A stretch of 64,000 nucleotides of DNA from Caldilineales bacterium (GTDB lineage Bacteria > Chloroflexota > Anaerolineae > J102). A model generated the notes under the pieces. That model searched no databases. It was not told where the DNA came from and worked only from the letters and a program-made list of their open reading frames with translations. Location of the stretch: contig JAIBAP010000014.1 in assembly GCA_019695115.1 (NCBI GenBank), positions 32,412 to 96,411 on the forward strand. The letters run 5' to 3'. The position numbers and the translations under genes were made by a program. Numbering within the stretch: the first letter of the stretch is position 1; every line of letters begins with the position of its first letter. Shown here in pieces: positions 19,656 to 21,007 of the stretch.

Positions 19656-19664
19656 AGTTCCTCC

Positions 19665-19790
19665 GGGGAAATGGAGATTGGTTATTGGAGATTGGTTATT
19701 GGAGATTGGTTATTGGAGATTGGTTATTAGAGATTGGTTATTGGAGATTGGTTATTTCGCAATCTCTAATCTCTAATCTCCAATCTCTAC
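19665..19790. repeat. Heptamer array (GAGATTG-GTTATTG x5) followed by a partly complementary AATCTCT array, forming an imperfect long hairpin
   Basis: Direct 14-nt composite repeats, then an inverted arm (CAATCTCTAATCTCTAATCTCCAATCTCTAC ... CCAATAACC). The whole element fills the 134-bp gap between the OFOR alpha and beta/gamma genes of one operon and overlaps the alpha stop codon. Confidence 0.85.
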
Positions 19791-21007
19791 TAGCCAATAA
19801 CCTCCAAAAACTGCTCCGGCGTGATCAAATTCCCATCCACGCGCTGGATCGAGACGATGTCGGGCGGGGCGAGGCGGTGGAGGGCGGCGTGGCGGTAGAG
19901 CAGCAGTTCGATCTCGCGCCCATACTGGCCGTGGTTCAACTCGCCGATGACGATGCGGCTGTGCCCCGCCGCCGCCTGCATGATCAGATTTTCTGGCACC
20001 GGCCAGAGGGTGTGCAGGGTCAGGTCGCTGACGGGATGGCCGGCGCTGCGGCTGCGGTCGGCGGCCTCGCGCATGGCCCGCGCCGTGGTGCCGTAGGCAA
20101 TGAACAGCGTCTTTGCTTCGGGATGGCGGTTGAGCAGCCCGAATTCCATCTCTGCCCGATGCTGGTCGATCTTCGCCCGCAGATGCTCGTTCAAGCGCCC
20201 CACTTTGACCGGGTCTTTGGTCAGGATGCCGTGTTCGTCGTGGCTGGAGCCGGTGTAACGGGTGATGTGCGGGCCGCCGTAGGGACTGGTGGGAGGCGTG
20301 GCATCGAGCGGCTCGAAAGCGTAGGGCAGGTAGGTTTCTTCGGGGCGGAGGCGCGGGTCGGGCTGGCCGGTGGCGGCGTCGATGCGGGCGCCAGAGCCGT
20401 TGCCGCCGGTCGGGCCGGTAGGAACGGTGGGGCGCTGGCCGACGGGCGCATCCACATAGTCGGCGACATCCACCGTGGACATCGACATGATCAGTTCTTT
20501 GTCGGGCAGGAGGAAAACGGGCGTGCGGAAGCGTTCGGCCAGGTCGAAGGCCGTCTGCACCAGGGTGTAGCATTCGGGCACCGACGAGGGGGCGAGGGCG
20601 ATGATGGGATAGCCGCCGCTCGTCCCCCAGCGCACGAACTGCACATCGCCCTGGGCCACGGTGGTGGCCCCGCCGGTGGCGGGCCCCATGCGCATGACAT
20701 CGACGATGACCAGGGGCGTCTCGCCCATGATGGCCAGACCGATGTTTTCGGAATAGAGCGAGATGCCGGGGCCGGCGGTGGCGGTAAGGGGGCGGGCGCC
20801 GGTCATGGCGGCGCCGATGCACATGCTGAGGGCGCTGATCTCGTCCTCGGCCTGGATGCCAACCCCGCCCACTTTGGGTAGCTCGCGCAGCATGTGCAGG
20901 AGGATGGGAGTCGCCGGGCTGATGGGATAGCCGGCGAAGAAGTTGCAGCCGGCGCGCAGGGCGCCGCGGGCGATGGCGGTGGCGCCGTCGACATATTCAC
21001 GAGGCAT
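19790..21007 (-). CDS. 2-oxoacid:ferredoxin oxidoreductase alpha subunit (PorA/VorA-like)
   Basis: GYPISPATPIL ... GPGISLYSENIGLAIMGETPLVIVDVMRMGPATG, typical of a POR alpha subunit; 405 aa. Confidence 0.85.
   Translation of the reverse strand: MPREYVDGATAIARGALRAGCNFFAGYPISPATPILLHMLRELPKVGGVGIQAEDEISALSMCIGAAMTGARPLTATAGPGISLYSENIGLAIMGETPLVIVDVMRMGPATGGATTVAQGDVQFVRWGTSGGYPIIALAPSSVPECYTLVQTAFDLAERFRTPVFLLPDKELIMSMSTVDVADYVDAPVGQRPTVPTGPTGGNGSGARIDAATGQPDPRLRPEETYLPYAFEPLDATPPTSPYGGPHITRYTGSSHDEHGILTKDPVKVGRLNEHLRAKIDQHRAEMEFGLLNRHPEAKTLFIAYGTTARAMREAADRSRSAGHPVSDLTLHTLWPVPENLIMQAAAGHSRIVIGELNHGQYGREIELLLYRHAALHRLAPPDIVSIQRVDGNLITPEQFLEVIG

Follow-up and report, generated by a model that had tools for sequence, protein, structure and literature searches.

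A heptanucleotide-repeat hairpin between ferredoxin oxidoreductase subunit genes of a Caldilineales bacterium as a probable local copy of a dispersed Chloroflexota repeat family

In a 64,000-nucleotide stretch of a Caldilineales genome (phylum Chloroflexota; contig JAIBAP010000014.1), here called the window, the genes for the alpha and beta/gamma subunits of a 2-oxoacid:ferredoxin oxidoreductase (OFOR) are separated by a 134-nt spacer made up largely of 7-nt repeats. We propose, with a probability of roughly two in three, that this spacer is a local copy of a dispersed heptanucleotide tandem-repeat family, of the short tandemly repeated repetitive (STRR) or simple sequence repeat (SSR) type, in intergenic DNA of Chloroflexota. 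All the structural features of such repeats were found: head-to-tail 7-nt units, many intergenic copies, polarity relative to genes, and length variation among relatives. Moreover, the spacer has the structure of the hupS-hupL type, with foldable inverted heptamer arrays between two subunit genes of one enzyme.

Pfam domains and coordinates bear out the gene pair and the spacer, which spans exactly 134 nt (19656-19789) in a window of 65% G+C. The alpha protein is identical to MBX7234289.1 from a Caldilineales metagenome-assembled genome (MAG), and the N-terminus of the beta/gamma protein, MAIANELALKPIETY, is common to the orthologues. The same spacer was assembled independently in two European Nucleotide Archive (ENA) assemblies and is therefore not an assembly artefact; it is partially present in eight Logan contigs. 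The features of the junction, in the order of the mRNA, are as follows (L followed by a number denotes a locus of the comparison throughout).

19790 to 21007, minus strand: OFOR alpha subunit gene (Pfam POR_N, 3.5e-51; PFOR_II, 1.6e-13), its last codons and TAG stop lying within the repeat hairpin
19793 to 19806, minus strand: alpha coding tail GGAGGTTATTGGC, residues E-V-I-G, the base of the 5' arm, which pairs with CCAAUAACC...CUCC in the minimum-energy fold
19790 to 19792, minus strand: alpha stop codon TAG (CTA on the plus strand), inside the stem
19761 to 19788, minus strand: 5' arm on the mRNA, four heptads (AGAGATT GGAGATT AGAGATT AGAGATT), G-rich and C-free
19757 to 19760, minus strand: loop, GCGA on the mRNA strand (GCGC in L081, a relative with 97% alpha identity)
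19673 to 19756, minus strand: 3' arm on the mRNA, six AATAACC-AATCTCC copies, that is, twelve heptads
19660 to 19664, minus strand: Shine-Dalgarno GGAGG of beta/gamma, 4 nt 5' of the ATG and outside the array
18312 to 19655, minus strand: OFOR beta/gamma fusion gene (Pfam TPP_enzyme_C, 8.8e-29; POR, 5.2e-13)

The original prediction described the spacer as filled by five repeat units followed by a partly complementary run. Repeats do fill it and the complementary run is present, but the count was too low, since we found six 14-mers (twelve heptads). Tandem Repeats Finder reports a 14-nt unit in 6.1 copies at 19672-19756 (97% matches, score 163) and AATCTCT in 4.1 copies at 19761-19789. The 14-mer GAGATTGGTTATTG has four exact copies and, if one mismatch is allowed, six, where 0.01 would be expected. 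Three times the length of the 5' arm, the 3' arm forms with its flanks an 89-nt G-free tract, about 36% C, between the alpha stop and the beta start. On the mRNA strand the alpha end reads ...GAG GTT ATT GGC TAG, then T and the G-rich heptads, and at the beta end the C-rich arm is followed by ATTTCCCC GGAGG AACT ATG. The Shine-Dalgarno is kept as GGAGA in L081. It had also been noted that the last alpha codons (E-V-I-G) are themselves built from the repeat; this holds, with CCAATAACC at 19795-19803 falling in these codons, and extends to the alpha stop.

Both strands of the spacer are predicted to fold stably. The mRNA strand gives -52.4 kcal/mol (z = -6.4) and the opposite strand -72.9 kcal/mol (z = -7.9), and in neither case was any of 200 shuffles as stable. 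The predicted mRNA stem starts in the final codons of alpha and takes in the TAG stop, and most AAUCUCC heptads are predicted to be paired, judged by pairing probability per heptad. Sequestration of the beta Shine-Dalgarno by the CUCC heptads was considered and rejected: its predicted pairing/accessibility value is unchanged by the array (0.58 with the full leader vs 0.56 with a 30-nt leader). No Rfam 15 family matched at the gathering threshold across the whole window, and a search of the spacer at E <= 1 returned only generic hairpins (miRNA precursors) at 18-24 bits, vs thresholds of 80-230.

The OFOR spacer is one of about 15 gaps in the window that carry 7-nt tandem arrays. Heptad arrays occupy about 14 of the 26 inspected intergenic gaps of at least 60 nt, and a strict scan recovered 12 arrays at period 7, compared with 0-2 at each other period from 4 to 12. 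The arrays adjoin every kind of gene boundary, and the neighbouring genes are functionally unrelated. Five unit families recur at separate sites in the window.

Family A, CGTGAAR: 3717, 21195, 46395, 56332 and 61106
Family B, GTTCCGT / CGTGTTY / GTTGCGT: 9989, 46175, 51305, 56256, 58011 and 59564
Family C, GGTSGCA: 12517 and 57880
Family D, GTTGAYT: 12649 and 31831
Family E, GGAGATT: 14806 and the OFOR spacer element

The unit variant GGGGATT was also found in arrays of this comparison. The second family-E array (14806-14838) consists of (AATCTCC)4 on the sense strand and lies 3 nt 5' of the ATG of an M20 peptidase gene (13591-14802, minus strand), with no intervening Shine-Dalgarno and no complementary arm. 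A second pair of subunit genes is also split by an array: serine dehydratase beta (31146-31829) and alpha (31908-32936) are separated by a 78-nt gap (31830-31907) with four AACAGTC-type heptads. In this genome it is thus nothing unusual for an array to separate subunit genes.

How old is the OFOR array? We compared the junction in 80 orthologous loci fetched with the alpha protein.

ATGA overlap at the alpha/beta junction: 26 of the 80 loci, mostly distant
15-16 nt junction with Shine-Dalgarno: the Caldilineales loci L068, L090/L091 and L003
Alpha/beta overlap: L002
64-nt hairpin, AGAGATT GGTTATT GGTTATT / AATAACC AGTAACC AATAACC: L081 (97% alpha identity)
69-nt hairpin with a perfect 25-bp stem: L004 (89% alpha identity)
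93-nt hairpin: L082 (87% alpha identity)
103-nt hairpin, GGATATT x 4 / (AATATCY AATACCA) x 4: L001 and six identical metagenome contigs (84% alpha identity)

The 26 ATGA overlaps support the expectation that these subunits are normally translationally coupled. Instead of the uniform non-repetitive spacer that had been named as the outcome speaking against the original prediction, the orthologous spacers span -4 to 165 nt, some repetitive and some not, so that the prediction stands in this respect. The possibility it had raised of a recent insertion does not survive: the element is not isolated but one of about 15 arrays in the window, and related hairpins occur down to about 84% alpha identity. 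Because they do so at the same junction, the site of the array is old and only its copy number recent.

Relatives with 97-84% alpha identity thus vary in length at this junction (64, 69, 93 and 103 nt vs 134 nt in the window), and all four of their hairpins fold significantly (z = -4.0 to -9.9). Within each relative the arm units are complementary, and the units differ by lineage (GGATATT/AATATCC, AGTAATT/AATTACT, GGTTATT/AATAACC). The hairpin in L001 ends 0-9 nt from candidate beta ATG starts. Among the array-bearing orthologues the boundaries of the junction are fixed and only the number of units changes. From the six near-identical 14-mers here vs three heptads in L081, we infer a recent expansion in 14-nt steps, which would be a signature of slippage. 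At the same junction, distant Chloroflexota carry unrelated heptads, of the CGTGAAA type in L005, L007, L009, L013 and L014 and of the GTCAAT type in L058 and L061.

The repeats have also shaped the end of the alpha protein. Past a conserved ITPEQFL, array-bearing lineages end in EVIG*, QEIGD*, GEKIGY* or AVVRY* and array-less sisters in AEIGNF* or AIGDF*, and the TAG stop of the array-bearing lineages arises from the ATT|AG junction of two units. Presence or absence of an array varies among close relatives at the same gene. We considered whether the array was born from the alpha tail. The array-less sisters end in the proto-repeat-like GAGATCGGC or GCCATTGGCGATTTT, which is suggestive but indistinguishable from the relic of a lost array; we did not adopt this origin. 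In a neighbour-joining tree without support values, the array-bearing L001 falls outside the array-less pair.

The arrays are polar relative to genes. In a survey that relied on rough gene calls (G+C by codon position) and counted only the nearer gene end for each array, arrays next to stops were G-rich on the sense strand in 17 cases and C-rich in 4, whereas those next to starts were G-rich in 2 and C-rich in 14 (Fisher p = 4.7e-5). The survey, rough as it was, also showed eight arrays extending by 2-13 nt over the stop end of the open reading frame (ORF) upstream of them. The OFOR element obeys this polarity, with its G-rich arm past the alpha stop and its C-rich arm ahead of the beta start. 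The chirality of the hairpin is the same rule: a G/U-rich trailer and a C/A-rich, G-poor leader. The polarity thus speaks for transcription of the arrays and for a filter on their orientation at the level of RNA.

The units of the OFOR element are not confined to OFOR operons. The 21-mer GGAGATTGGTTATTGGAGATT has exact matches at 41 metagenome loci, none of which encodes an OFOR subunit and whose flanks are mutually unrelated. At least two complementary units (AATCTCY or AATAACC) lie within 200 nt 3' of the 21-mer in 21 of 42 occurrences, and on the 5' side in none of the 42. The order of G-rich arm, loop and C-rich arm is fixed and reads alike on either strand. Arrays of families E and A also occur in named Chloroflexota whose alpha proteins are only 49-65% identical: family E in L040, L057, L058 and L065 (49-55%) and family A in L014, L016 and L066. 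Among the other phyla sampled, only two weak arrays were seen, at an Acidimicrobiia locus (L069) and on an uncultured-bacterium contig (L104), and the sampled loci of Bathyarchaeia, Bacteroidota, Acidobacteriota and Gemmatimonadota had none. Carriage by phages was rejected as a source of the 21-mer, which is unmatched in viral contigs.

If the spacer represents one local member of a dispersed repeat family, its history and expression may be pictured as follows. Two unit types, GGAGATT and GGTTATT, with their complements would make up the G-rich arm, a short loop and the C-rich arm. The arrays would grow and shrink by 7 or 14 nt through slipped-strand mispairing, and the complementarity of the second arm could be maintained by template switching or by selection. 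The element would have taken the place of a short or overlapping alpha/beta boundary, and would now provide the final codons and the stop codon of alpha. It is probably transcribed inside the operon mRNA, with the operon read through. The predicted RNA is a long, imperfect, bulged stem-loop starting from the alpha tail, followed by a G-free leader and a normal Shine-Dalgarno. Terminating ribosomes would have to open the stem at its base, and beta would be translated by independent initiation and not by coupling. The element would be tolerated and not required by the enzyme, because sister lineages lack the array, and its orientation would be selected at the RNA level.

Several observations weigh against this reading. 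First, GGAGATT-type units recur in Chloroflexota at 49-55% alpha identity and at 41 unrelated loci, and purely local slippage is therefore insufficient; the recurrence may point to active spread, or else to a conserved factor that reads the units. Second, three assemblies of this species have an identical spacer, and seven assemblies of the L001 species agree likewise in the related one, so that the array is not hypermutable on short time scales. One short contig, L140, has a fifth GGAGATT unit. Third, a hairpin has been kept at the junction in at least five lineages despite the change of units, and this persistence could reflect selection for function. Finally, the gene calls behind the polarity counts are rough, and the arms of a hairpin are not independent observations.

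Could the hairpin be a functional intercistronic element? Of the alternatives, this one is the most probable, although we consider it unlikely. An mRNA element of the hupS-hupL type, or of the repetitive extragenic palindromic (REP) or bacterial interspersed mosaic element (BIME) type, would stop 3'-to-5' exonucleases or guide an endonucleolytic cut, and would thereby stabilise the alpha segment and tune the alpha:beta ratio. Folding predicts a stable hairpin for the window as for each of the four orthologues with an array, the hairpin persists though its units have changed, and the cyanobacterial papers propose stabilisation or translational coupling for the hupS/hupL STRR hairpins. However, the subunits of one enzyme have no obvious need for unequal expression, sister lineages do with a junction of 15-16 nt or an overlap, the disproportion between the arms fits slippage better than an optimised stem, and the same arrays stand at every type of gene boundary. 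A stabilising role of the REP/BIME kind, as the original prediction had suggested, is possible, but the element can be explained without it, as close relatives dispense with the array. A barrier effect on mRNA decay may exist as a secondary consequence.

The heptads, and not the hairpin, might instead be the functional part, as an array bound by a protein that recognises specific RNA or DNA sequences within a genome-wide network. The same idea has been put forward for the TAACTGA repeats of Beggiatoaceae. Distant Chloroflexota share a few conserved unit families, their polarity relative to genes is strict, and some C-rich arrays abut starts that have no Shine-Dalgarno (the M20 peptidase in the window, beta in L001). 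We find this idea more doubtful still: there is no known candidate protein, five or more unrelated unit families would demand several readers, presence or absence differs among close relatives at the same gene, and the genes next to the arrays have unrelated functions.

The original prediction had also raised a transcription attenuator. On such a reading the 89-nt G-free tract would load Rho or pause RNA polymerase and so cause polarity on beta. The spacer is untranslated, and the make-up of the 3' arm resembles C-rich, G-poor Rho utilisation sites. However, a scan for promoters and terminators detected neither a sigma-70-like promoter nor a stem with a U-tract on the mRNA strand of the spacer, where CA-rich heptads and AUUUCCCCGGAGG come after the stem, and not the U-tract of an intrinsic terminator. 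Pairing of most AAUCUCC heptads, as predicted, would hinder Rho loading. Moreover, C-rich leaders are usual ahead of many unrelated genes here and would be costly as attenuators, and cyanobacteria are not known to have Rho, yet the same repeat class thrives there. We therefore regard attenuation as very improbable.

Least credible of all is a miniature mobile element, of the miniature inverted-repeat transposable element (MITE) or REPIN-like kind, inserted whole: a different CGTGAAA-hairpin module of 120-140 nt does occur twice in the window, with one copy inserted relative to L081 between ATCTAT repeats, and the GGAGATT/GGTTATT hairpin is found at many unrelated loci, but no conserved flanks, terminal repeats or target duplications are common to the 41 loci or to the orthologues, the fixed boundaries and changing copy number are a mark of slippage, and viral contigs have no matches. 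With no flanks in common, the MITE model was rejected for the OFOR element.

The reading as a dispersed heptanucleotide repeat places the element among several known systems. In cyanobacteria, STRR hairpins occur between hupS and hupL, and roles in transcript stability or translational coupling have been proposed (PMC2670836). The arrays described here resemble cyanobacterial STRR in their 7-bp tandem units, intergenic location, several families per genome, capacity to form hairpins and position between enzyme subunit genes (PMC2670836). Unlike those, they reside in Chloroflexota and not in filamentous cyanobacteria, and their units are GGAGATT and GGTTATT. No tandem copies of the canonical STRR1-3 units (CCCCAGT, TTGGTCA and CAACAGT) were found in 1.6 Mb of compared DNA. 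Identity with STRR1-3, TAACTGA, GGGAATC or the Chloroflexus GATAGRA units was rejected, as these gave no or single tandem matches.

The same polarity is seen in the GGGAATC repeats of Xanthomonas and the GGGGAYT repeats of Nostoc PCC 7120, in which the G-rich strand is the coding strand 3' of ORFs and the non-coding strand 5' of them; length varies extensively among close relatives, and no regulatory role was found (Rehm et al. 2015, PMC4692102). The polarity rule is thus not new, having already been published for those heptamers. Like them, the arrays here are heptameric and intergenic, have the same polarity and some inverted pairs, and vary in length and sequence at the same site. However, the Xanthomonas and Nostoc repeats contain three or four G in a row and give rise to G-quadruplexes (PMC4692102), whereas GGAGATT and GGTTATT have only GG runs, and inverted pairing is usual here but rare in Nostoc. 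In the Nostoc tRNA-Leu (trnL) intron, the P6b stem-loop is likewise built from complementary heptamers (Kaasalainen et al. 2015, PMC4476775). Its arms are complementary 7-nt repeats, its class I unit TDNGATT is near the NNNGATT units found here, and it shares with our arrays indels in 7- or 14-nt steps, sometimes in one arm only. Unlike the arrays here, P6b lies within a group I intron and is a single locus, not a dispersed family.

Other known repeats can be compared as well. In marine Beggiatoaceae, TAACTGA direct repeats are strand-specific, lie directly 5' of starts, often without a Shine-Dalgarno, and occur also inside ribosomal-protein operons (MacGregor 2015, PMC4679880). They differ in having one unit type in 2-6 copies with essentially no inverted arm, whereas the OFOR C-rich arm precedes a normal Shine-Dalgarno. 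The REP, BIME and REPIN sequences of Enterobacteria and Pseudomonas are imperfect palindromes of 20-40 bp with a GTAG or CGTC end and a dedicated transposase (PMC3733652, PMC3116915). Like the OFOR element they lie between genes, often inside operons, form hairpins and occur in many copies, and REPs are classically tied to mRNA stabilisation; unlike them, the OFOR arms are tandem heptads that vary in 7-nt steps. GTAG is present at the stop in the window and in L081, and is not in L082, L004 or L001. Within the phylum, heptamer-derived (GATAGRA)n satellites are known from Chloroflexus aurantiacus (Subirana and Messeguer 2019, PMC6749651); they differ in unit and in class (Chloroflexia), with no hairpin arrangement or position relative to genes described. 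More generally, among long simple-sequence repeats of prokaryotes the heptamers are the most frequent, and slippage of the polymerase has been put forward as their cause, according to Mrazek 2007 as cited in PMC4679880. A literature search by sequence and taxon found, among the papers covered, none that prints these arrays and none on heptamer arrays in Anaerolineae or Caldilineales. The only new aspect is thus the presence of such arrays in these groups; the element itself is an ordinary copy of a known kind of repeat, in a phylum for which that kind has scarcely been documented.

Several further arrays lie in the window. At 61095-61180 the whole 68-nt gap between a convergent Cys/Met pyridoxal-phosphate enzyme gene (59636-61105, plus strand) and NfeD (61174-62460, minus strand) is a near-perfect CGTGAAR hairpin (-42.9 kcal/mol, z = -6.8) that reaches over the stop codon of the gene on the plus strand and lacks a U-tract. 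At 9989-10197, past the EF-P gene, a conventional terminator-like hairpin with a U-run (GGCCCGGTCACGCAACCGGGCC TTTCTTTT, minus strand) is followed by ten CCACGCA and four CCGGAAC heptads that reach the start codon of a HAD hydrolase gene, leaving no obvious space for a promoter or Shine-Dalgarno. The dispersed module of 120-140 nt mentioned above lies at 21130-21285 and 46296-46470 (0 expected by chance) and comprises a core AAAGAAAYGRTRCTCGGTYCTGAA, a CGTGAAA/TTTCACG heptad hairpin and an end CCTTCAYAACMAATCAACC. Its copy 5' of the alpha gene is the one that is missing in L081 and flanked by ATCTAT direct repeats, and the module looks like a small mobile element carrying a heptad hairpin.

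Other features of the window involve different kinds of sequence. Between OFOR beta and the M20 peptidase gene (14932-18290) lie genes for a DNA methylase (16794-18290, N6_N4_Mtase) and an AAA-ATPase (14932-16536); in the relatives L083 and L090 the peptidase directly follows beta, and the two genes look like an inserted restriction-modification or defence-like pair. At 21687-21796, a DUF3782 / PD-(D/E)XK gene (21281-22039, minus strand) contains in-frame tandem repeats of 21 and 42 nt that encode RFEQVDQ-like heptapeptides. At 38582-38787, a predicted ORF on the minus strand (37948-39435) contains about 34 degenerate GGGGTG hexamers (65% matches), which may be a segment of low complexity in the protein. 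In two places, 59505-59545 and 47291-47358, a long palindromic hairpin, perfect and non-repetitive, lies 3' of a gene (GGTGCGACGCACTTCGCGATCGCGAAGTGCGTCGCACC and CCCGTCAGGTCGCACGA...TCGTGCGACCTGACGGG); the two hairpins have a common core, GTCGCAC/GTGCGAC, and may be another repeat family.

What does the element mean for the organism? The consequences for the operon are small: alpha and beta are presumably no longer translationally coupled, and the C-terminus and stop of alpha are repeat-derived and differ among close relatives. A few heptad sequences are nevertheless conserved over distant Chloroflexota and recur at unrelated loci. As a long shot, the arrays could be a cis-acting Chloroflexota code, made of a small set of conserved unit families with fixed polarity, that is read or propagated by dedicated RNA- or single-stranded DNA-binding proteins, with the OFOR hairpin as a regulated intercistronic switch. 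If so, the hairpin would set beta translation or mRNA fate, and the likeness to the cyanobacterial GGGGATT and TDNGATT units would point to a mechanism shared by filamentous bacteria of two phyla.

The arrays also have a practical consequence, because they fragment short-read assemblies of this organism. The exact alpha protein is found on 20 public contigs, of which 14 do not reach 2 kb. Eight short contigs were examined (L135-L142): all of them end inside the array 3' of the gene, and seven begin just beside the upstream array (one of these inside it); L139 has a different upstream flank. Such fragmentation, together with repeat-derived stop codons, is relevant to the annotation and binning of Chloroflexota MAGs. 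Judged by this window, the genomes of Anaerolineae/Caldilineales are as rich in heptanucleotide arrays as those of heterocystous cyanobacteria, and they offer a second or third phylum in which to study what heptamer repeats do.

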